From: a virus | Strand: one strand, 5' to 3' | Virus record (IMG/VR): IMGVR_UViG_3300028635_000005 | DNA: 64,000 bases | In this document: positions 35,373 through 61,620 of the stretch, in pieces | Numbering within the stretch: the stretch's first letter is position 1 | How the letters are laid out: each line of letters starts with the position of its first letter | Made by a program: the position numbers and the translations under genes | The notes under the pieces: generated by a model | Database searches by the model: none | What the model saw: only the letters and a program-made list of their open reading frames with translations | What the model was told of the DNA's origin: nothing

Positions 35373-35387
35373 TAAATATAAACAAAA
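35373..35387 (-). promoter_or_regulatory. Early (host-sigma-type) promoter core
   Basis: TTTTGTTTATATTTA. Confidence 0.5.
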
Positions 35388-38127: not shown

Positions 38128-38142
38128 TAAATATAAACAAAA
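38128..38142 (-). promoter_or_regulatory. Early (host-sigma-type) promoter core
   Basis: TTTTGTTTATATTTA fused to the U-tract of the terminator. Confidence 0.5.
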
Positions 38143-48982: not shown

Positions 48983-50314
48983 TTAAAATCCTAATTTACG
49001 TGGTTCATTTATTTTAGAGTTATTATCTATTCCATAAAAATATATGTCTGCAAGTGTCATAGGTTCTGTCACTTCTACATCTCCATGTCCATTTTTTTCA
49101 AGAAGTTTCTTTGATTTTTCAACTGAAAGTTTTTCAAATTTATAGTTCATCAAAAGCCTTCCTTTACGTGTAAGTGCTTCATCTATATTCTTTATCCCTG
49201 TATTAAATGTTGCAACTATTGAAATATTAAGACAATCCGAAAGAAGCCCATCAGTTAAATTAAGAACATTTGAAACCGCAGAACTTCTTCCTCCTGTTCC
49301 TCTTTTCTCAAGTGCAGGTTCAGCATCTTCAATAATTAAAATTGAATCATTATTTTGCATAAGGAATGGAATAAACGCCGGATCTGTTATGGAATCAACC
49401 ATATCAGGAGATATAAATATAATGTTCTTTTTAAGCCTTGAGGTTAAGTATCGGATATACGTTGTTTTTCCAACACCTGGGCTTCCACTTAATATCACAA
49501 GATTTGTTTTATTCTTACTGTTAAGTCCATTAATTATTTTTTCAGACATTTCGGGAAAATCATCGTTATAATTTTCTTCCAAATTAACATTTATCTTTTT
49601 TACATTAAAGCCCATTTTATCAAAACCAGTTGATCCACGATATACGATAAATATTTGATTTTTAGCAACTGAAGGTTTTTTGAACCCCTTTAATAATCCA
49701 AGAAGATTATAAAAATGTGAATCGGGATTGTTTTCATCCTTCTGTTGATAAAAAATTGATCCTTTGTCTTCACCATCTATATACATGTATAGTCCTTCAT
49801 CAAGGCAAAATAGTATTGAAGTTATTCTTGGTTCTTTAGTGTCTTGATAAGATATTTTTATATATGAATAGTCTGGAATATTAAAATGTTTTAACAATTT
49901 TTTAACAAATATATTTAAGTCAAAATGATTGACACGATATACGCTTGGATAAATTTTATATTTCCTATAATATGCATATGCAAAATAATAAAGCTCTGAA
50001 TATGAATTTAAATAACCATCATTTCCATCATTAAAGGTAAAAAGCTCATGTACATCTCCAAAAGGAAATGGCTTAACCTCAGAAAACTTTTTAGTCGAAA
50101 TTTTAGAAATATCTATGACAACATCTTTCCAATCATATTTTTCTTCTACAACGTTACCTTCTTCGTCGTATCTCTCATATTGTTCCAGATTCATATATTC
50201 TTTAGTAATTAAATTTGTTATAACGTCAATTTCTTCTTTTGATAATTTATCTATAGGAAAAAATACTATTTCATCTTCTCCGTCTGGTCTTATTTTTATT
50301 TGCCTGCCAGCCAT
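48983..50314 (-). CDS. AAA+ ATPase
   Basis: SGSPGVGKT, IIEDAE, LNLTDGL, IDEALTRKGRL. Confidence 0.92.
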   Translation of the reverse strand: MAGRQIKIRPDGEDEIVFFPIDKLSKEEIDVITNLITKEYMNLEQYERYDEEGNVVEEKYDWKDVVIDISKISTKKFSEVKPFPFGDVHELFTFNDGNDGYLNSYSELYYFAYAYYRKYKIYPSVYRVNHFDLNIFVKKLLKHFNIPDYSYIKISYQDTKEPRITSILFCLDEGLYMYIDGEDKGSIFYQQKDENNPDSHFYNLLGLLKGFKKPSVAKNQIFIVYRGSTGFDKMGFNVKKINVNLEENYNDDFPEMSEKIINGLNSKNKTNLVILSGSPGVGKTTYIRYLTSRLKKNIIFISPDMVDSITDPAFIPFLMQNNDSILIIEDAEPALEKRGTGGRSSAVSNVLNLTDGLLSDCLNISIVATFNTGIKNIDEALTRKGRLLMNYKFEKLSVEKSKKLLEKNGHGDVEVTEPMTLADIYFYGIDNNSKINEPRKLGF

Positions 50315-52107
50315 GATTTTCGTCGATTTGTGTTATCGCCAAACGCTATTTCAAGAAATTTATTGGCACTTCTATCATTAATAATCGAGAAAAATGTTTT
50401 ATGTTCCATAACATATTCCCAATCTTTAAGCGATAACGAACCAAGTCCCTTTAAGTATTTAACATTTGAAACTTTTGTAGTTTTAGCAAATTCATTAAAT
50501 TCTTCAAGCGTATTAAAATATTTTCTTTCTTTTCCAGCATCACAGGCTACAAGGGGCGTAATTATTCTATATAGCATTTTATTCTCTATAATATGTGGAA
50601 ACCAACGATAAAAGAAATTTATTATAAGAGAACTTATATGTTGCCCATCGCTGTCCTCATCTGCTGCTATAATAATTTTTTCATAAGACGGAAGTTTTTT
50701 ACTTCCTGGTTCTATTTCAAGTATACTCATTACATCCATCCATTCTACGTTTGTAGCTAATTCAGATAACTTACGTACATTTTTAACCTTACCCTTAAGA
50801 GCATATATAGCCTCAGTTTCTGAATCTCTAGCTTGTCGAATTGACCCTGCTGCTGATGCGCCTTCAGTTAAATAAAGATGTTGTTTATATTTAGATGAAG
50901 GGCTAAATTTATCAGAAATCTTTCGTTTAGATTGTCGTTGAGCACGTTTAATCTTATTTATATTTTCATTCTTTAGTCTATCTTCGATTGATTTTTCAAT
51001 GTTTTTAGCAATATCAGATTTTCCTAAAAGACGAATAAGTCTGGTATGAAAAGCTTCTTTCATAGGTTCTTCAATTTCCCCTCGTCCTGTTGCAAACTTT
51101 GTTTTATTTTGGTCTGCAAATTTCATGAGAGTTGAAGGAACATTCAAGATAATAAGTGTCTCATAAAAATGATGGGCAAAATTATATTTAAAATACTCAT
51201 TAACCCAATCATTAACAATCTTTTGATGTATTCCAGTGCATTGAGACCCGTTCACAAATGACAAAGAACACGAATTTTCATATGATTCCCAAAGATATAT
51301 TGTTCCAAAAGTATTTGAAACAATTATATGATTTGAAGGGATAAAGTCTGCTGTAACAGGTATTGGAATCTCTTTACTATTTTCGATAAAAAACGCTTTA
51401 AGATTAAGCTTATTAATAATAGGATCATTTTTAATCAAAAAGGCTTTAAAAGAAAGATAAGTTGTCATAAGATCTTTATCCCATTTATAATTAGGAAACA
51501 TTTCCTTTGATGGAATAAAACTTATCGTGGTTCCAAGTTTATCTCCTGGAGTCTTCTTCCTAATCTCTTCTTTAACAACTTTAAAATCTTCCCATACAAA
51601 ACTCACATAATGCGTTTTATTTATAGTTTCAACTGTGAAACGTTCCGAAAGAATATTTGTTACCGCTGAACCTACGCCATGAGTTCCTAAAATATGAGTT
51701 TCCGTATCAATAAAATTAGATCCAGCGTGAAGTTCTTCAAGTGCAGTACGTACAACATTTTTCTTTGTCTTAGGATGTTTTTTAGCTGCATTATAAAATC
51801 CTTGCCCCTCATCAATTACAGTTATTTCATTATTATCGAGATTAACTTTAACTGTAATGTTTTTCATTTTTCCTTTGCAACGTTTCGCTTCATCTAATGC
51901 ATTCTCAAGAATTTCAACGATAAGATGCATAAAACCTTCAGACCAGCTTTTTTGTACATCTGTAAGAGAACCATTTATAATAAGAGGAAGTTTTTCATCC
52001 ACATGCGCAACTTGCCCAATATACATTGTTGGACGCAATCGAACAGCGTCAAATGTATCCAGAGCAATAATTTCTTTTATGTTTTTCTGGTCTATCTTAA
52101 TAGCCAT
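50296..52107 (-). CDS. gp39: Type II topoisomerase, ATPase/TOPRIM subunit (gp39+60/GyrB/ParE-like)
   Basis: LRPTMYIG, EILENALDE, DEGQG, GTHGVGS, LTEGASA, DEDSDGQHI, YLKGLGS. Confidence 0.95.
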   Translation of the reverse strand: MAIKIDQKNIKEIIALDTFDAVRLRPTMYIGQVAHVDEKLPLIINGSLTDVQKSWSEGFMHLIVEILENALDEAKRCKGKMKNITVKVNLDNNEITVIDEGQGFYNAAKKHPKTKKNVVRTALEELHAGSNFIDTETHILGTHGVGSAVTNILSERFTVETINKTHYVSFVWEDFKVVKEEIRKKTPGDKLGTTISFIPSKEMFPNYKWDKDLMTTYLSFKAFLIKNDPIINKLNLKAFFIENSKEIPIPVTADFIPSNHIIVSNTFGTIYLWESYENSCSLSFVNGSQCTGIHQKIVNDWVNEYFKYNFAHHFYETLIILNVPSTLMKFADQNKTKFATGRGEIEEPMKEAFHTRLIRLLGKSDIAKNIEKSIEDRLKNENINKIKRAQRQSKRKISDKFSPSSKYKQHLYLTEGASAAGSIRQARDSETEAIYALKGKVKNVRKLSELATNVEWMDVMSILEIEPGSKKLPSYEKIIIAADEDSDGQHISSLIINFFYRWFPHIIENKMLYRIITPLVACDAGKERKYFNTLEEFNEFAKTTKVSNVKYLKGLGSLSLKDWEYVMEHKTFFSIINDRSANKFLEIAFGDNTNRRKSWLAGK

Positions 52108-53340: not shown

Positions 53341-54213
53341 TTATGCTATGACTTCTACGTCCACTTCCGGGGTAGCCATGTATTCTTCGGCAATTTCCCA
53401 AAGTTTGATGTTAAAGTCAAGGTGACGTGAGGCGTTGTTTATGCCGCGAGGCTTAGTGCGCCTGCCGTTCATCGTTTGACGGTCGAACATTCCTTTTACA
53501 AGGCGTTCCTGAATGATGTTGAATGTTGACCAAAGATCGTTATTCTTATCTTCACCGCGAACCGGCTCAATTATACGGGAAGGATTAACGATAGTCGTGG
53601 CCTTCTTCATATCGATTGTGCCATCATCCCTAATGAAAACCATCGGTTCACGGGCAGCAAAGGCTCTAATAACGAATTCTTCCTGCTGATCTTTGTTGAG
53701 AACAACTTGTTGCATGTCACCAATATGAGAACCAATAATGTTGTACTGGTTTGCTACAACCTCAACAAGTTCCTTAAGCTCCTTCATATCGATTCCAATA
53801 TGGCGAAGTCTTACAGAAGTAAACATCCCGGGCATTGCAACTACAAGGCCATTGGTGCACACAAGACGAAAGAGTCCCATGTGAATTTGCGCCGGAGAAA
53901 TACCGTTATGAGAGTTATCAAGAACGATCTGGGGACGAACCTTGTCACGATGAAGAGGCATAAATCCAAGATCGGGATTGTTAAGACGCACCATGTGACG
54001 GGAATAATTGGACGATCCCTGTTGACGAACATAAGTGGGACTCCAACCAAGCTTATCAAACGCTTCAAGCAATTCGTATGTAGGAACATAGGAATAACGA
54101 TCCGAAACATGAGGACTTTTATGCTCAGTAAGAACCGCCGGAGCATGGTTACGAATATCTTCAAGTGTGGTTACACGATAACCGATGCTAGTAAGAGGAT
54201 TATTTCGTGTCAT
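53341..54213 (-). CDS. DUF932/DUF945-family protein
   Basis: SDRYSYVPT, SRHMVRL, NSHNG, GLFRLVCTNGL, DLWSTFNIIQERL. Confidence 0.85.
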   Translation of the reverse strand: MTRNNPLTSIGYRVTTLEDIRNHAPAVLTEHKSPHVSDRYSYVPTYELLEAFDKLGWSPTYVRQQGSSNYSRHMVRLNNPDLGFMPLHRDKVRPQIVLDNSHNGISPAQIHMGLFRLVCTNGLVVAMPGMFTSVRLRHIGIDMKELKELVEVVANQYNIIGSHIGDMQQVVLNKDQQEEFVIRAFAAREPMVFIRDDGTIDMKKATTIVNPSRIIEPVRGEDKNNDLWSTFNIIQERLVKGMFDRQTMNGRRTKPRGINNASRHLDFNIKLWEIAEEYMATPEVDVEVIA

Positions 54214-54754: not shown

Positions 54755-54823
54755 ATTGTAAATATAAACAAAAAACTTGAAATAAAAAAATATTTAACCG
54801 ATTTTTTTCAGTTAAAGTTAAAA
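54755..54823 (-). promoter_or_regulatory. Early promoter cassette (69 bp)
   Basis: TTTTAACTTTAAC...TTTTTGTTTATATTTACAAT; colinear with 59702-59770. Confidence 0.65.
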
Positions 54824-54832
54824 ATAATGATT

Positions 54833-54859
54833 AAAAAAGCCGGAAATTATTTTCCGGCT
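54833..54859 (-). terminator. Intrinsic terminator
   Basis: AGCCGGAAA/TTTCCGGCT stem plus U-tract. Confidence 0.8.
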
Positions 54860-54864
54860 AAATT

Positions 54865-55143
54865 TTAAATATTGATATGCTGTGAATATCGAAAATCTAA
54901 GAAATATCTTCGCTTATCCAAAAGCTTATTCAATAAAATTGGACAAATTTTATTTGACAAATATTCTTTTATTTCTTCGTTTGTAGAATCTTCATCATTA
55001 GTTAAAGTGTCGACAACTATGGGCCAATCTGTATCTTCATATTGAGGATCCTCATATAAATTATAAAACCAATCGGTAAACTGATCAGGGGACATTTTAT
55101 CACTTAAATTTTCATAAAGTTTTTCACGCACAAGTTTTTTCAT
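54865..55143 (-). CDS. Small acidic late protein with CTS-like leader
   Basis: MKKLVREKLYE; late motif upstream. Confidence 0.7.
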   Translation of the reverse strand: MKKLVREKLYENLSDKMSPDQFTDWFYNLYEDPQYEDTDWPIVVDTLTNDEDSTNEEIKEYLSNKICPILLNKLLDKRRYFLDFRYSQHINI

Positions 55144-55167: not shown

Positions 55168-55698
55168 TTAAAAAAGTTTCACGTTGTTTGGAAGATTCTC
55201 AACCTCATTTCCCCATGCGTCCCACCCTTCTTTTTTATTTCTCGCAAAAAGTTCAATATAGGGCGGATAACTAATTTTCTCTATAACATCATAAAATTCC
55301 TTAGGTTTTTCTGAATGCCTGCCTTTAGGCGCATACAAAACTGATGAAATATTTTTCTTATGTTTATAAGGCAATGGGGCTCCTTTTCTCCCAAATAAAA
55401 GTATCTCATGTTGTCCACGAAAATAATGCCCAAGCCCAATTAAGTTTTTAACCCAAATAATGTTGGTGATATAATGAAATCCCCAATGTTTCATAACTTG
55501 AAGCCCAGTTGCAAGGAAGTTATTGGTGACCCACATGTACATATGACATTGATCATCAGCAAGGCTATCAATAAAATCTTTCATGGCAAAAATTTCCTCT
55601 GTTTTCATAAGAGGATAATGTTTTTGAGCACCACGACAAATTTTGCCACCACCAGTAAGATTCCAAGGAGGGTCTACGTATATTGTCTTGTATTTCAT
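55168..55698 (-). CDS. MT-A70-family N6-adenine methyltransferase
   Basis: YVDPPW, HYPLM, YMWVTN, WGFHY..IIWVK, RGQHEILLFG, HSEKP. Confidence 0.92.
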   Translation of the reverse strand: MKYKTIYVDPPWNLTGGGKICRGAQKHYPLMKTEEIFAMKDFIDSLADDQCHMYMWVTNNFLATGLQVMKHWGFHYITNIIWVKNLIGLGHYFRGQHEILLFGRKGAPLPYKHKKNISSVLYAPKGRHSEKPKEFYDVIEKISYPPYIELFARNKKEGWDAWGNEVENLPNNVKLF

Positions 55699-56135
55699 TA
55701 AAAAAGAGCTTTAGGTTTAAGATTCGCAGGTGCTTTCCAGTTATCATAATCCCATGCAAGAGCATCGTAACATACGATATTGTAATCGAGAATTTTCTTT
55801 GCCTCAGTTATTTGGGTGTTATCAAGGTCTGGGCAATGCTCTAGAAGAACCTGAAGCATACGGCCTCTCATTTCCTCTACGTTATCAGCCATAAGCTCGA
55901 CACCATAAACAGATGCGAGCGCTTGAAGAGGTGGGTGCCCTGCTTCGAGTTTACGGGCAAGAACACGCACAAGAAAGTTGCCGTTACCAGCTGAGTTGTC
56001 GAGGAACGTTTTAGAAGGGTCTGAGAAAACTTCGGACGGAAGCTTGTCGAGCATCTCATCTACGAGAGCAAGAGGTGTAAAGTCCTCAGCAGTTTGTTTA
56101 CGGCGGGCCTTGCGTTTATGTTCGAGAGAGGTCAT
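55698..56135 (-). CDS. Stand-alone SAM-binding half of an amino-methyltransferase
   Basis: Motifs X (EDFTP), I (FLDNSAGNGNFL), II (YGVELMADN) and III (IVCYDAL); no NPPY/DPPY. Confidence 0.8.
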   Translation of the reverse strand: MTSLEHKRKARRKQTAEDFTPLALVDEMLDKLPSEVFSDPSKTFLDNSAGNGNFLVRVLARKLEAGHPPLQALASVYGVELMADNVEEMRGRMLQVLLEHCPDLDNTQITEAKKILDYNIVCYDALAWDYDNWKAPANLKPKALF

Positions 56136-57415
56136 TATTTAACTTGGGATTCGATGTAATCAATTTCTTCCTGCGTAAGGCCATAAAATTTATATATATT
56201 ATTAATATTAAATATATCACATAGTATAGGTTTTTTAAACCATTGTAGGGCGTAATAGTATTTGTTTTGGATTTGATTAAAGCAATATTGCATTACAAAT
56301 GTAACTAACTTACTATCAAGAAATTTTATTATATTATTTGATTCGTTTTCATCCTTAGTAATAACATATGCACAAGCAGATGATCCATTCATAATATTTT
56401 CATTTTCTTTTACTATCAAATATTTATTTCCTGATATTCCGAAAATAATTTTAGATTTTTTTGAATCTTCGTGAAATATATCTGTATATGCAAAAATAAA
56501 ATTGTTATTAGTTAATTTTTGAATTATTTTTGTAGTTCCGTGTTTTTTATCATCTATTATTCTTGAAACAGATCTTTGAAATTCATTATTGTTTGATAAT
56601 AATTTATGCAAAATACTATTTATTATTGAATTATTTACCTGAGAAACAAACGAGTTTTTACGTAAAACTGTATTAAAATTAATAATAGATTTATTTATAT
56701 CATAACATTCTATTATCGTATCAGATTCCTTTACATTTTCATTTTTAACTACAAAATAACAAAATGTATCTCCTACGTTAAAGTATTTTTTAGGTGTGCC
56801 GACGGCTAAATATTTAATATTTTTAAAATTATGTTTAAAAGATACTTGGCTGGCGGTTCTGCCCAATAACATATCTATAGCCGGCAATGGCGAAATAAGA
56901 CTTACGTAGCCATTATCTTTGCATACATCAAATGATTTATTTATAAAAGCTGGATATATTTTGTGTTTGCTCTCAGTACTTTTTTGAAATGGCGGGTTAC
57001 CTACAACTACGTCAAATTTAGGCATTTCTTCTATTTTTATTTTATTTATATCTTTAATTATTCCTACTCTGTTAACGCTATCCTTACTCCCGTAAACCAT
57101 TTTGCTTACTAACCACTTATTTCTTTCCACGTTAACATAAGCCTTAACCATATTATTTATAATATGCTTATATCTTTCAGTTTCGTTCTCTATCGCTATA
57201 TTTTTCATTAGACGCAACACAACTTCAAGCATAAAGACTCCACTCTTAGCGCATGGATCACACCATAAAAGATTTGGATCTGTCCAAATCTCCTTGGGTA
57301 GTTTGTCTAACATTTCTTCAACAAGCTTAACCGGAGTAAATATTTCCTCATTGCTTGGGGAATTTAAGTATGCTAACAGTTTCTTTCTTTTTTCAAGTTG
57401 TTCTATTATGGTCAT
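56135..57415 (-). CDS. Eco57I-like N6-adenine MTase-TRD protein A
   Basis: EEIFTP, degenerate DPCAKSG, FDVVVGNPPF, variable TRD, C-terminal YKFYGLTQEEIDYIE. Confidence 0.85.
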   Translation of the reverse strand: MTIIEQLEKRKKLLAYLNSPSNEEIFTPVKLVEEMLDKLPKEIWTDPNLLWCDPCAKSGVFMLEVVLRLMKNIAIENETERYKHIINNMVKAYVNVERNKWLVSKMVYGSKDSVNRVGIIKDINKIKIEEMPKFDVVVGNPPFQKSTESKHKIYPAFINKSFDVCKDNGYVSLISPLPAIDMLLGRTASQVSFKHNFKNIKYLAVGTPKKYFNVGDTFCYFVVKNENVKESDTIIECYDINKSIINFNTVLRKNSFVSQVNNSIINSILHKLLSNNNEFQRSVSRIIDDKKHGTTKIIQKLTNNNFIFAYTDIFHEDSKKSKIIFGISGNKYLIVKENENIMNGSSACAYVITKDENESNNIIKFLDSKLVTFVMQYCFNQIQNKYYYALQWFKKPILCDIFNINNIYKFYGLTQEEIDYIESQVK

Positions 57416-57449
57416 AACTATATCTGTTGTTTTACAAATATAATCAAAA
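56985..57449. repeat. Direct repeat copy A (5' half and promoter of the MTase gene)
   Basis: Colinear with 60697-61161; 65-nt perfect identity at 57120-57184 and 60832-60896. Confidence 0.9.
57435..57449 (-). promoter_or_regulatory. Early (host-sigma-type) promoter core
   Basis: TTTTGATTATATTTG = TAnnTTTG. Confidence 0.6.
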
Positions 57450-57483
57450 TTCTTGAAATATAAAAATATTTATTAAATTTTTG

Positions 57484-59685
57484 TTAAAATTTTTCCATAA
57501 GGTGAAAACTTTCAATAGCTTTATTCATTTTATATTTGTTAATAAAACCACTTTCAACTAAATATTTAAAGTCTTCTATGTTAACCCCACATATATTAAA
57601 AAACATTTCCTTATCTTTTGTTTTAAAAATATCTTCTACTTTTTCTTCGGCTTCATCGGATACTACTAAAAAATTAGGAATAGCGCTTGTTATTGTTCGG
57701 GCTTTATTAATCAATTCATTTATTAAAATCTTTCTTTCCTTTTTGTTTCTTTCTCCTTCAATAGTTGTTTTAAATGTTTTTCCTTTGCCACAATCATCTT
57801 CTGATACATTCAAATCTTCTATTTTTCCGTTCGGTGTTTTTTCTACATTAGACAATATGTCTATCATTTTTGAATCTATGTCAACTCTTTTATTAAACAT
57901 CCAATCACGATTAAATTTGGCAATGGTGTTTGTTGCATCAGCACCAATCTTTACAATTTTACTAAGTAACTCTTCGACGTTTGATTCAATAAGTTGATTT
58001 CCTTCATATGCCATAACTCTCATTGTATCAAGAAGCCTACGAATTATTTGCAAGTTTGATGTTTCAGTGCTACCGTTTTCTTCGGCAAAGTTATACATCA
58101 TGTTCAATGCCCTGTTGGGATTAAAGTCAAAAATATAAGCATCTGTTTTAGCCGCTTCTTTATTAGGGGTTTTCCCGCGAAATGCTGCTTGCCAGTATGT
58201 TTGTACACTTTCAAGTTCATTAAGAAAAAAGACACTATTCCATTCCTTAACAGTTACACCAGTATTTAATTTTCCACAAGAGATTGTAATAGTTCCAACA
58301 TAATTTTTGCCATTTGCTATTTGATTATCAACTTTAAAAATGGCATCACGTACAAGATTTAATGTGTCATTACTTTCACCATCATTATCTCCGGCTGCAA
58401 CCACTATTTTATATTTTGAGAAAAAAGAATGATTATTAAGCATACGAGCCATGGCTTTAACTGAGTTAACAGAAGTCATGTACCAATACATATGCTTAAG
58501 GTGCTTTTTAATTTTATCATCATTAAAAGGTGATCTCAAAAAACGAGGTTCTGGTGTTGCAAGATTATCAAGAAAAGTTTGTACTGATGCCTCATGTTCA
58601 AATACGAATTCATCGTTGGCCGCAAAAAATTTGTTTAAAGTAAGGCGTTCATTTTCATCAAAGGCATCAATATATTTAAGAATTTCATCTGAAATTTTGT
58701 ATGTATATAAATTTATACGGGGAAGCCACTTATATGCTTCATTTTCAGGATCAGCTTTCTTTGTATGCTGTTCATCTATATAACTCCAAGAATAAATTTG
58801 ATCTTCATCATAATATCCTGATGATATAAGATTAATAGGAGTACCTGAAAGATCAAGACGATAAGAATAATTTAACGTTTTAATAAAAGCCTGTGCTTTA
58901 TCTGAAGGAAATCCGAAATGAACTTCATCAATGATTACAAGATCAAAATGTTCATGCAATGCTTTATTCCATTTTTCTTTGGGTTTTCCATTTAAGTTTT
59001 TCCCTAAAATATCTTGGAATGAAGAAAATAAAACAAAATTTTCTTTGTCGGTGATATTTATGGGTTCATTTTTTGAAAAATCAAGAGAATGTAAAAATTC
59101 ATAGCCTTCAAATTTAACTTCATTAAGAAGATCTGTTTCCCATGAGTCTCCTACCGCAGGTTTGTACGTAAGAATAAGGACTCTTTTTGCATTCATTTTT
59201 TTCATGAGACTATATGCAGCAAAAGTTTTTCCAAAACGCATTATAGCATTAAAGAGAAAAACGTTTCCTTTTTTATTGGAAAAATAATCATAAGCCTTAT
59301 TAACTGCATCTCCCTGTTCCGTACGTAGTGTATAATTATTAGGTCTTTGTATATTAGTCGTAAGCTTATTGTATGCAGCAAAAATAGGTTTAGGCGTTAT
59401 AGTCTCAAACCATTCACCTCCTACTCGATAGGGACGCAATATTTTATGGAGTTTACTCTCAAGGTCTGATGAATTCATGTTAATATCATCGGCGTTAAAA
59501 ACATGAATAAGTTCTACCTTTTCATCTCTATTACCGGCAGTAAATTGTTCACGTATGCGAATCATTGCAGCTTCTTCAATAGTTTCAGCTTTTCTATCAG
59601 CTTTACCCACTTTAAATCGACCAAGAGATTTCTTTACATCTGTGGTGTATACATAGACACTACGCCACAATTTTGTGTTTTCCAT
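57484..59685 (-). CDS. GIY-YIG (T5orf172-like) nuclease fused to a ResIII-type SF2 helicase
   Basis: VYVY..FKVGKA..RIREQ..LESKLH..GEWF; NAIMRFGKT, IIDEVH, LSGTP, TGVTV, QAAFRG. Confidence 0.88.
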   Translation of the reverse strand: MENTKLWRSVYVYTTDVKKSLGRFKVGKADRKAETIEEAAMIRIREQFTAGNRDEKVELIHVFNADDINMNSSDLESKLHKILRPYRVGGEWFETITPKPIFAAYNKLTTNIQRPNNYTLRTEQGDAVNKAYDYFSNKKGNVFLFNAIMRFGKTFAAYSLMKKMNAKRVLILTYKPAVGDSWETDLLNEVKFEGYEFLHSLDFSKNEPINITDKENFVLFSSFQDILGKNLNGKPKEKWNKALHEHFDLVIIDEVHFGFPSDKAQAFIKTLNYSYRLDLSGTPINLISSGYYDEDQIYSWSYIDEQHTKKADPENEAYKWLPRINLYTYKISDEILKYIDAFDENERLTLNKFFAANDEFVFEHEASVQTFLDNLATPEPRFLRSPFNDDKIKKHLKHMYWYMTSVNSVKAMARMLNNHSFFSKYKIVVAAGDNDGESNDTLNLVRDAIFKVDNQIANGKNYVGTITISCGKLNTGVTVKEWNSVFFLNELESVQTYWQAAFRGKTPNKEAAKTDAYIFDFNPNRALNMMYNFAEENGSTETSNLQIIRRLLDTMRVMAYEGNQLIESNVEELLSKIVKIGADATNTIAKFNRDWMFNKRVDIDSKMIDILSNVEKTPNGKIEDLNVSEDDCGKGKTFKTTIEGERNKKERKILINELINKARTITSAIPNFLVVSDEAEEKVEDIFKTKDKEMFFNICGVNIEDFKYLVESGFINKYKMNKAIESFHLMEKF

Positions 59686-59701
59686 ATTATTTTTAACTTA
59701 T

Positions 59702-59770
59702 ATTGCAAATATAAACAAAAATTTTAAGATATGAAAATATTTAGCTAACTTTTTACGGTTAAAGTTAAAA
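59702..59770 (-). promoter_or_regulatory. Early promoter cassette (69 bp)
   Basis: TTTTAACTTTAAC...TTTTTGTTTATATTTGCAAT, perfect TAnnTTTG. Confidence 0.7.
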
Positions 59771-59795
59771 TTTTGACGTTTTATAACAAAGGATT

Positions 59796-61127
59796 TTAGT
59801 TAACGTGGGATTCAATATAATTAATTTCTTCTGACGTAAGATTAAAATATTTATAGATATCTTTATCCGTCCAATTTTTTGTAAAATCGACCTTTGGGAT
59901 ATTTTTTGCAACTATAGTTGTAACAAATCCACTATATCGATTATTTTGTATTAAAAATTTTATCAATTTTGAATTCATATAACTGATAACAGATTCTTTG
60001 TTATCATTTTTATCCAATTTTACTATCCAATTTTGATTATTTGCAATACCCAATTTATCAAAATCTACATAAGGTCTAAATTTATCAGCGCCACCTTTAG
60101 GGATTATAATTTTGTTAAATCTATAATTATCTGGTTTTTCATAATACGCATAGTGTGCTTTATCTAAATTTCCGCCTATAACATAAGCTTTATATTTATG
60201 CGTTGCCGTTTTTACATTTGATCTATCTTCGGGTTTATAAAATATTCCTACAGATTTTATCTGTAATTTAGGAATATTTTTATTAAATAATGTTTTATTA
60301 TTAATTAATATTGCTAAAGAATTAAAGTCCCTTGGCATCATGTCTATGTCTTTAATATCTATTATCATTTTTCCTTCATCTGTAATTAATTCAGTACCAT
60401 TATAATTTTTTGATTTTTTCATAAGAAATACACTAAATGAAGATGCGACAGAAAAATATTTTTTAATATCTTTTGAGACATTCAAATATTTTAGATTATA
60501 TTTTTTAAAAATATCTATTAATTTTACGCGTCCTTTTCTAATGTCATATGTTCCGGCTAACCATGTCGGAGGAGTTATTAACATTAAATAGGCATCATTT
60601 TTAATAAGTTCTATTCCCTTTTGTATAAAAAGGGCCCATAAAGGTTGTTTATAAGCTTTAACTTTATTTCCTTTACTTTGTCGATTTTCTAAACTTTGAT
60701 ATGGAGGGTTTCCTACTATTACATCAAACTTAGGCATATCTTCTATTTTTATTTTATTTATATCTTCGATTATTCCCACCTTGTTAACATCGTCTTTGCT
60801 TCCATAGATCATCTTGCTTACTAGCCATTTGTTTCTTTCCACGTTAACATAAGCCTTAACCATATTATTTATAATATGCTTATATCTTTCAGTTTCATCT
60901 TTTATAGGTAAGCTTCTCATTAGTCGTATTATCACCTCGAGAATAAAGACTCCACTTTTAGCACAAGGATCACACCATAAGAGATTTGGGTTAGACCAAA
61001 CTTCGGGCGGAAGTCTGTCAAGCATTTCTTCAACAAGTTTAGCAGGAGTAAATACTTCCTCATTGCTTGGGGAATTCAAATATGATAGCAGTTTTTTTCT
61101 TTTTTCAAGCTGTTCTATTATGGACAT
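59796..61127 (-). CDS. Eco57I-like N6-adenine MTase-TRD protein B
   Basis: EEVFTP, degenerate DPCAKSG, FDVIVGNPPY, different TRD, C-terminal YKYFNLTSEEINYIE. Confidence 0.85.
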   Translation of the reverse strand: MSIIEQLEKRKKLLSYLNSPSNEEVFTPAKLVEEMLDRLPPEVWSNPNLLWCDPCAKSGVFILEVIIRLMRSLPIKDETERYKHIINNMVKAYVNVERNKWLVSKMIYGSKDDVNKVGIIEDINKIKIEDMPKFDVIVGNPPYQSLENRQSKGNKVKAYKQPLWALFIQKGIELIKNDAYLMLITPPTWLAGTYDIRKGRVKLIDIFKKYNLKYLNVSKDIKKYFSVASSFSVFLMKKSKNYNGTELITDEGKMIIDIKDIDMMPRDFNSLAILINNKTLFNKNIPKLQIKSVGIFYKPEDRSNVKTATHKYKAYVIGGNLDKAHYAYYEKPDNYRFNKIIIPKGGADKFRPYVDFDKLGIANNQNWIVKLDKNDNKESVISYMNSKLIKFLIQNNRYSGFVTTIVAKNIPKVDFTKNWTDKDIYKYFNLTSEEINYIESHVN

Positions 61128-61161
61128 AACTATATCTGTTGTTTTATAAATATAAACAAAA
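60697..61161. repeat. Direct repeat copy B
   Basis: See 56985-57449. Confidence 0.9.
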
Positions 61162-61187
61162 ATCCTGAAATAAAAAAATTTCAGGAT
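61158..61187 (-). terminator. Hairpin overlapping the early promoter at the divergent junction
   Basis: ATCCTGAAA/TTTCAGGAT stem. Confidence 0.5.
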
Positions 61188-61233: not shown

Positions 61234-61620
61234 ATGATACTTCCGGGCAACTTAACTAATACTCTTCCTAAAGTTATCTATGAAGAGTTTGAAGGAACTT
61301 TAAGCATTAGTGGTCGTTCAACTTCTCCCGAGGTTGAAGAGTACTTTGAAGAATTTATCCCATACCTTAAAGATAATTTAATCAAAGATCCTATCGACAT
61401 AGTTGCTTCTTTTGATTTTGATTTTTTTAACACCAAAACATCTCGTATCATTATGAAAATTCTTTATATTCTTAAGAAACATGTCTATGATGCAGGCAAA
61501 AACTTAAAAATTTCATGGGCGTATGAAGAAGGTGATGAGGATTTATTTGAGGCCGGCAAAGATTACGAAGATATTATAAAAATCCCGTTTGAGTTTATCG
61601 AAAAACCAATGCCCGAATAA
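61234..61620 (+). CDS. siaC: SiaC-family (DUF1987) regulatory phosphoprotein
   Basis: LSISGRS.P, FDFFNTKTSR (cf. YFNTSSSK), ISWAYEEGDEDLFEAGKDY. Confidence 0.85.
   Translation: MILPGNLTNTLPKVIYEEFEGTLSISGRSTSPEVEEYFEEFIPYLKDNLIKDPIDIVASFDFDFFNTKTSRIIMKILYILKKHVYDAGKNLKISWAYEEGDEDLFEAGKDYEDIIKIPFEFIEKPMPE

Follow-up and report, generated by a model that had tools for sequence, protein, structure and literature searches.

Can one free-standing cofactor-binding subunit serve two DNA methyltransferases (MTases) that carry different target-recognition domains (TRDs)? The question is raised by a locus in a 64,000-nt stretch of viral DNA (IMG/VR record IMGVR_UViG_3300028635_000005). The whole stretch is referred to as the window, and the locus coordinates are those of the window. 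Five genes, all on the minus strand, make up the locus (Table 1): two large MTases, a helicase-like ATPase, an open reading frame (ORF) of 145 aa and an MT-A70 family MTase. The large MTases are called A and B and the 145-aa gene the short ORF or short gene. Related loci from IMG/VR and metagenomes are numbered L### and related proteins P####. An earlier note on this DNA had described one subunit that binds S-adenosylmethionine (SAM) and two catalytic/TRD subunits; the five genes and every motif it quoted were found on the minus strand in the ORF list and by direct reading. Sequence comparison and structure models of relatives support the short ORF as a conserved SAM-binding half that works with the NPPY/TRD proteins of this family.

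The short ORF and its family

Direct reading of the short ORF gave motif X (FTP), motif I (LDNSAGNGNF), motif II (YGVEL) and motif III (DALAW), with NPPY absent. The sequence shows homology to the N-terminal halves of both large MTases. Its length and content are those of the family (∼130-160 aa; motifs X, I, II and III, without motif IV), and its start codon overlaps the stop codon of the adjoining NPPY/TRD gene. A partner lacking an N half of its own was also looked for and was not found here, as A and B each carry a complete N half under selection.

The short ORF matched phrog_21201 (1.2e-20), phrog_4376 (6e-19) and the C-terminal part of phrog_11371. A Pfam scan of the short ORF and a PDB sequence search with the short-family profile gave no match, and an NCBIfam search gave nothing useful. 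Relatives fell into 209 protein clusters of 79-254 aa, mostly 135-145 aa, that were 57-94% identical. Motifs X (FTP), I (D-x-x-x-G-x-G-N-F), II (YGVEL) and III (D-A-L) were invariant or nearly so in the family alignment. They were retained in every homologue examined, whatever its partner, including those beside K-type MTases, in which the N half has Lys in place of the motif I Gly. Homologues were located by tblastn in Lak megaphages, T4-like cyanophages and phages of Aeromonas, Klebsiella, Vibrio and Shigella, and the ESM Atlas held many viral clusters of ∼140-190 aa in this family. A real SAM-binding half with canonical motifs X, I, II and III, as the earlier note had read the short ORF, is therefore borne out by a conserved family, present in large phages, with split, fused and permuted relatives.

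In one protein (P0126, 413 aa) a short domain stands at the C terminus of a PF14022 protein without NPPY, so the domain is also found outside MTase partners. Locus L009 contains a 48-aa fragment (124-270) matching short-family residues 1-46, and downstream of it come a C-half-only gene, an HNH gene and an intact copy of the short gene; the fragment may be a remnant of an earlier arrangement.

Partners of the short gene in relatives

The survey covered 56 IMG/VR loci and several metagenome loci carrying the short gene. The short gene almost always adjoined an Eco57I-type protein bearing NPPY, and was usually downstream of it with an overlapping stop/start. Some partners consist of the C-half only, with NPPY within the first 8-27 residues (P-SSM2 gp036, L012, L013, L026, L028, L055), and L018 and L063 show the two genes in reverse order, again with a partner without an N half. 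Natural permuted fusions, in which NPPY and the TRD precede motifs X, I, II and III, were found in Aeromonas phage Ah1 gp077, L052, P0127 and P0139. One lineage holds both fused (P0127, P0132, P0133) and split (P0134, P0135) forms. For the C-half-only partners, SAM can come from no source but the short protein.

Other partners are full-length. Canonical motifs I-III are kept in L006, L030, L036 and L041 and in helicase-MTase fusions of 1286-1425 aa (L010, L011, L013, L017). Full-length partners without SAM motifs in the N region are of the K type, of an NLEF type with the Gly loop deleted, of a DxQxAGxQF type, or unrecognisable. In P0128-P0130 a short-like domain is fused to the N terminus of an NLEF-type enzyme. 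Most partners possessing an N region have lost motif I, and a canonical N half is kept in only ∼6 of ∼32 partner lineages on a rough count. Each of two complete genomes of phages (405 kb and 388 kb) has a single NPPY core, located in a motif-I-less partner beside the short gene. The C-half family gave 3545 matches in the representative library, the best 148 of which comprised 47 canonical, 19 NLEF, 65 other and 15 C-half-only proteins and 2 without NPPY. Since every type of partner retains the catalytic motif, the partners are expected to methylate still, and must obtain SAM.

Homing-endonuclease genes adjoin the short gene in several relatives. HNH genes lie upstream in L008 (513-1178) and L014 (5164-5976), a GIY-YIG gene lies downstream in L006 and L007 (L006 7430-7948), and a further such site is in L004 (1473-2972). 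In Shigella phage PSD9 the C-half partner itself carries a fused GIY-YIG domain.

Structure models of natural fusions

The permuted fusion P0127 was modelled with AlphaFold (predicted local distance difference test, pLDDT, 82.7; predicted template modelling score, pTM, 0.79). Its C-terminal short domain has three strands only, which identifies D-A-L-x-W as motif III on strand 3 and places the split exactly between strands 3 and 4. The counterpart in M.TaqI is ILADFLLWE. An early MAFFT alignment that set DALAW against NPPF was rejected, as the model puts DALAW on strand 3. Docking was judged from the ranges of structural alignments. The best VIA-align match was MboIIA (Z 10.6, root mean square deviation 3.3 Å over 151 residues, model residues 1-409). 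M.BceJIV, CcrM, EcoP15I Mod and RsrI were also matched, all of them complete beta-class MTases with both halves spanned. The gamma-class enzymes TaqI and CamA, in contrast, were matched only over 1-281 or 313-445, one half each. Since the beta class has the order IV, TRD, I and a single rigid superposition covers both halves, the short domain is predicted to dock on the catalytic half in a normal Rossmann fold. For split relatives, the model provides good evidence that the N half absent from the partner is the short protein.

P0128, which joins a short-like domain to an NLEF-type N half and a C-half, was modelled with a pLDDT of 83.1 and a pTM of 0.74. Residues 193-551, which comprise the NLEF N half, the C-half and the TRD, superposed on all of M.TaqI (Z 21.8, root mean square deviation 4.2 Å, 330 residues), and the model also matched LlaGI (Z 17). 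The short-like domain was placed with low confidence and formed no sheet; the multiple sequence alignment covered it with three sequences, which makes the evidence from this model weak.

Methyltransferases A and B

Both large MTases matched Pfam Eco57I (A, E 2.7e-10; B, E 1.7e-18) and contain FTP, CDPCAKSGVF and NPPF or NPPY (at residue 140). In each the (N/D)PP(Y/F) motif follows motifs X, I, II and III and is followed by a TRD, as in gamma-class Eco57I/TaqI-type enzymes. B matched TaqI_C weakly (E 0.0026, 18.5 bits, below the 26.5-bit cut-off), and a PDB sequence search with B gave no match. The altered motif I, with Lys, and the motif II without G-x-E/D that the earlier note had described in both proteins were confirmed by L-INS-i alignment with canonical relatives. 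In this alignment the canonical Gly-x-Asp/Glu of motif II reads Ala-Tyr-Val, and an acid follows only three positions later. A and B therefore depart from the canonical SAM contacts, with Lys in place of the first motif I Gly, and Val in the column where motif II has its acid. NVE was considered as the site of a retained motif II acid, its Glu, and this reading was rejected on the same alignment.

Over codons 1-144, which make up the N halves, A and B share 83% identity; the synonymous divergence (dS) is 0.96, the nonsynonymous divergence (dN) 0.09 and the ratio of dN to dS (omega) 0.09. The C-halves are 35% identical, so that A and B share an N half and differ in their TRDs. The earlier description of A and B as catalytic/TRD subunits holds for motif IV and for the different TRDs. 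They are not bare subunits, as the N half is complete and under strong purifying selection.

A metagenome scan with a back-translated K-motif pattern (14 fixed bases) found the K-type N half joined to five other C-halves (L071, L072, L074, L075, L077). More distant K-type N halves are present in L043 and L003. In viral contigs the pattern found only the contig of L043, and related-locus searches with B alone and with an alignment of A, B and L043 re-found only L043. In all K-type proteins Lys stands for the first motif I Gly, V, I, T or A fills the position of the motif II acid, an acid follows at +3, and NPPY/F is intact. The motif III Asp is kept in A, B and L074, shifted or unclear in L071 and L075, Asn in L043 and ambiguous in L003. 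At the DNA level, L072 matches A without a difference in the promoter and over the first 394 nt; the sequences diverge from nt 395, and NPP starts at nt 417. This pattern indicates replacement of the C-half with a breakpoint at the natural split point, the exchange falling exactly at the junction of strands 3 and 4. By these comparisons the K-type N half appears to be a conserved module joined to swappable C-halves. Association with the half-domain, which the earlier note had proposed to check, was seen in every visible case: the short gene was present wherever the neighbourhood of a K-type MTase could be viewed (the window, L043, L003, L072, L075), in a small sample chosen in part by way of the short gene.

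Met131 of A (57023-57025) and of B (60735-60737) lies 8 residues before NPPY, where C-half-only proteins begin. A Met at the C-half start was present in ∼87% of short-associated full-length partners and in 40% of the wider family, and also occurs in partners of L005-L051. It could be an internal start, and is treated here as a family trait that may make loss of the N half viable.

Local recombination and the MT-A70 gene

Three relatives (L064, L067, L068) are 100% identical in DNA to the window over >13 kb, covering B, the helicase, A, the MT-A70 gene and flanks, except for one patch in the 3' part of the short ORF. In the patch there are 37-48 differences (8-11% divergence), with a dS of 0.25-0.34 and an omega of ∼0.2 among the short ORF alleles. 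The patch ends exactly at the junction of the short ORF and the MT-A70 gene. In L066 the sequence downstream is unrelated and the MT-A70 gene is missing. The 3' part of the short ORF appears from these alleles to be a very local recombination hotspot, and co-conversion during intronless homing could be the source of the mosaic patch.

The MT-A70 gene product has the full domain with DPPW (PF05063 positions 1-172 of 172, E 8.9e-23; phrog_359, 1.6e-56). The gene was present in L064, L067, L068 and L072 and absent in L066 and all other relatives. It is best read as an optional cassette outside the conserved unit, contrary to the operon pictured in the earlier note. A single K-type MTase was present in the 11 kb of L075; by their distribution, the MT-A70 gene and B both appear to be accessory.

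The helicase

The helicase matched Pfam ResIII (4.4e-14), with GKT and DEVH motifs as in superfamily 2 (SF2) helicase-like ATPases, and its N terminus matched MUG113 above the cut-off (1.7e-5). In PADLOC it matched REase_MTase_IIG (PDLC03626, a Type IIG/ISP-like model; 3e-27). The SF2 helicase with a GIY-YIG domain that the earlier note had placed between the two large MTases is therefore present, the N terminus being MUG113-related. The protein is homologous to the helicase part of the 1286-1425-aa fusions, and the order helicase, K-type MTase, short gene is found again in L075 and, in part, in L071, in parallel with the fusions followed by the short gene in L010, L011 and L017. The helicase with its nuclease-like N terminus thus appears to belong to the same conserved unit.

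Type ISP enzymes are single polypeptides comprising a nuclease, a helicase-like ATPase, a coupler, an MTase and a TRD (PMC4666363). As helicase and MTase are joined in one protein in relatives, the unit recalls a Type ISP enzyme divided into separate proteins, and a functional resemblance of the helicase, A and the short ORF to Type ISP is possible. For the Type I/ISP-like assembly suggested earlier, the fusions in relatives are in favour. Two features of Type ISP are lacking here: the helicase and A are separate genes with a 68-nt gap that contains a promoter-like motif, and the Pfam search found MUG113 at the N terminus and no match to a Mrr-family (PD-(D/E)xK) nuclease.

Proposed explanation and alternatives

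The explanation proposed is that the locus is a modular adenine-MTase system of a large phage, with exchangeable parts. The 145-aa protein would be the SAM-binding half (strands 1-3; motifs X, I, II and III) of an Eco57I/TaqI-type enzyme, made as a separate polypeptide. A, and probably B, would contribute motif IV, the remaining catalytic fold and two different TRDs. Their N halves would be conserved yet without canonical SAM contacts, and the free half would supply the cofactor-binding function or be needed for it, one such subunit being shared by two specificity subunits. Together with its nuclease-like N terminus, the helicase would form part of a unit resembling a dismantled Type ISP enzyme. 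That one free cofactor subunit serves A and B is plausible and unproven, with a probability of about one half. We infer that A and B are unable to use SAM alone, that the short protein binds both, and that the phage benefits by self-protection through methylation, possibly with restriction-like activity. It is doubtful, though conceivable, that the K-type and NLEF-type N halves are dummies, switched on when a SAM-loaded half-domain displaces them or docks beside them. If so, a single cofactor subunit would enable more than one specificity subunit along with a Type ISP-like helicase-nuclease, methylation and restriction-like activity would be tied to the supply of SAM, and TRD cassettes would be freely swappable at the junction of strands 3 and 4.

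Several observations weigh against a cofactor subunit shared by A and B. B is not adjacent to the short gene. In the P0128 model the degenerate N half takes the canonical position, and a partner with its own N half would by this model offer no empty slot for the short domain. The complete N half of A and B, with an omega of 0.09, presumably does something, and may still bind SAM in a non-canonical way: all K-type proteins have an acid three residues past the canonical motif II position, and M.TaqI is active with Ala at the first motif I Gly (LEPACAHGPFL), which shows this Gly to be dispensable. Partners with canonical motifs keep an intact short gene (L006, L010, L011, L017, L030, L036, L041), so the gene is not there only for the rescue of a defective site. 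The sole difference between L010 and L013 is one more gene in L013, of the C-half-only kind, inserted between those for the MTase and the short protein, and a short gene behind a full-length MTase could accordingly be a port for transient cassettes. (An origin of L010-type partners by recombination between tandem C-halves was considered and rejected, the C-half of L010 being 99% identical to the first C-half of L013.) The selected N half, the M.TaqI sequence, the acid at +3, the canonical partners and the L010/L013 pair all fit an alternative in which A and B are self-sufficient, with a Lys-type site that binds SAM, and the short protein is a spare half for transient C-half-only cassettes, here idle or redundant. 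Such cassettes would enter and leave by recombination at the site or lie elsewhere in the genome. The C-half replaced at the motif IV junction in L072 and the patch in the short ORF itself, 8-11% divergent between flanks of 100% identity, would also be expected. This alternative has a modest chance of being correct. No C-half-only gene was found in the 64-kb window or on the 260-kb contig of L011 (64% complete), and the short gene is intact in every lineage seen with a full-length partner, which is unexpected if it is redundant. The SAM-contact motifs are moreover altered jointly in K-type proteins of three distant lineages (motif III is variable).

It is improbable that the short protein acts otherwise than by completing the fold, either as an activator or stabiliser on the sheet edge or as a SAM-sensing regulator of the MTases or the helicase-nuclease. 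Trm112-type partners, which dock on the MTase sheet edge as activators or stabilisers, give a lead in this direction. Conservation of the SAM-binding motifs of the short protein in all contexts, its constant association with this MTase family and the fusions of a short-like domain to a complete TaqI-like enzyme (P0128-P0130) would agree with such a role. In split and permuted relatives, however, the role of missing N half suffices, and the short-like domain is placed with low confidence in the P0128 model. Homology to the N halves of A and B would also be seen in a functionless, decaying fragment of a third MTase gene, the outcome that the earlier note had set against its own proposal. That origin is effectively refuted by the large conserved family of the same length (mostly 135-145 aa), its invariant motifs, the omega of ∼0.2 among alleles, the conserved stop/start coupling and the existence of fused and split relatives.

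Relation to known systems

A and B share the motif order X, I, II, III, IV, TRD with the gamma-class enzymes M.TaqI, CamA and M.BseCI, which have a TaqI-type TRD. M.TaqI, like A and B, is without the first motif I Gly, and the model of the related P0128 superposes on the whole of it. A and B differ from this group in the motif I Lys, in the lack of an acid at the canonical motif II position and in the adjacent separate SAM-binding half. The beta-class enzymes M.MboIIA, M.RsrI, CcrM and EcoP15I Mod have the order IV, TRD, X and I-III, which is the order of the C-half and short genes and of the natural fusions. The sequence family and TRD here are gamma/TaqI-like, unlike those of the beta class, which indicates that the permutation is independent of that class. 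The parts here are also separate polypeptides, and A keeps an extra N half.

The naturally split C5 MTases M.AquI and M.EcoHK31I consist of two polypeptides from adjacent genes (PMC3404938), and adjacent genes for two polypeptides are also found in the window. M.AquI and M.EcoHK31I are C5-cytosine enzymes, are split near motifs IX/X and not between III and IV, and are not phage-wide families. With Type ISP the locus shares an SF2 helicase-like ATPase, a gamma adenine MTase and a TRD, fused in relatives of the window. It differs, as read from the genes, in that these are separate genes, phage-borne, with a MUG113/GIY-YIG-like and not a Mrr nuclease domain and an extra free cofactor half. A survey of jumbo phages (Iyer et al., 2021; PMC7824862) describes circularly permuted M.EcoKI-like adenine methylases. 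Compared by description, these are probably fused permuted members of the short family, such as phrog_11371 and Ah1 gp077. The part of that survey that was read mentions the permutation and contains no free-standing half, pseudo N halves or cassette exchange. A limited literature search likewise found no description of these three features.

Split and circularly permuted DNA MTases are the textbook case of evolution by duplication and fission, and natural intermediates are rare. The family described here has the stages side by side, namely whole enzymes, an altered N half with a free half, split forms in both orders and re-fused permuted forms, with recombination breakpoints that coincide exactly with the split point. 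If A and B need the free half, the locus would encode a natural two-component adenine MTase with a constant cofactor subunit and exchangeable specificity subunits. This would be relevant to phage anti-restriction biology and as a natural scaffold for split-enzyme engineering. It would also affect annotation, as many phage 'methyltransferases' that are NPPY-only or lack motif I would be incomplete without the short half.

Layout of the locus

Table 1. Features of the locus and their positions in the window.
Feature	Position	Strand	Description
MTase B	59796-61127	minus	443 aa; Eco57I/TaqI-type adenine MTase, K-type N half, own TRD
MTase B motif I (CDPCAKSGVF)	60945-60971	minus	
MTase B NPPY	60699-60710	minus	
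Helicase-like ATPase	57484-59685	minus	733 aa; ResIII, GKT and DEVH; N-terminal MUG113/T5orf172 (GIY-YIG-related) domain
MTase A	56135-57415	minus	426 aa; K-type N half, TRD unlike that of B
MTase A motif I	57233-57259	minus	
MTase A NPPF	56987-56998	minus	
Short ORF	55698-56135	minus	145 aa; putative free-standing SAM-binding half, without motif IV
Short ORF motif I (LDNSAGNGNF)	55974-56000	minus	
MT-A70 family MTase	55168-55698	minus	176 aa; DPPW
Recombination patch	55698-56015	minus	3' part of short ORF
orf92	54865-55143	minus	92-aa ORF downstream of MT-A70
Terminator-like hairpin	54838-54859	minus	closes the A / short / MT-A70 / orf92 unit
Hairpin upstream of B	61162-61187	both	just upstream of the promoter-like motif of B; terminator-like on either strand
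Promoter-like motif, A	57435-57448	minus	TTTGATTATATTTG, upstream of A
Promoter-like motif, helicase	59706-59719	minus	copy upstream of helicase
Promoter-like motif, B	61147-61160	minus	copy upstream of B
Further promoter-like motifs	54759-54772, 38128-38141, 35373-35386	minus	

A scan of the window for the promoter-like motif TTTG-N-TTATATTT(G/A) gave 6 copies, on the minus strand only, against 1.2 expected. Upstream of A and of B, conservation around the motif covers ∼34 nt. The motif contains a TAnnTTTG element, which we take to be typical of Bacteroidota promoters, and the phage host is probably a member of the Bacteroidota. A search of the locus DNA against GenBank phages gave no match.

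As a separate copy of the motif precedes each of B, the helicase and A, and a terminator-like hairpin follows orf92, the locus consists of three transcription units: B, the helicase, and A with the short ORF, MT-A70 and orf92. The single operon of the earlier note is accordingly replaced by three units, and the MT-A70 gene does not close the last of them, since the 92-aa ORF precedes the terminator (54859-54838). The overlap of the stop and start codons of A and the short ORF was as described; the A/short and short/MT-A70 junctions both read TAATG, with a one-base overlap. The short protein and MTase A are probably translated from one shared mRNA.

Downstream, also on the minus strand, are genes for a DUF932 protein (53341-54213) and a T4 gp39-like topoisomerase II subunit (50296-52107). 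DUF932, Toprim/HATPase, T4_Y16D and Phage_T4_Y10B genes also flank the short gene in the distant relatives L005 and L006, which places the module in a conserved T4-like replication region. On the other side of the locus, the sole plus-strand gene of this stretch (61234-61620) encodes a homologue of the SiaC-family regulatory phosphoprotein (PF09345, E 1.3e-22). Such a homologue is unusual for a phage, and it adjoins B also in L064, L065 and L067.

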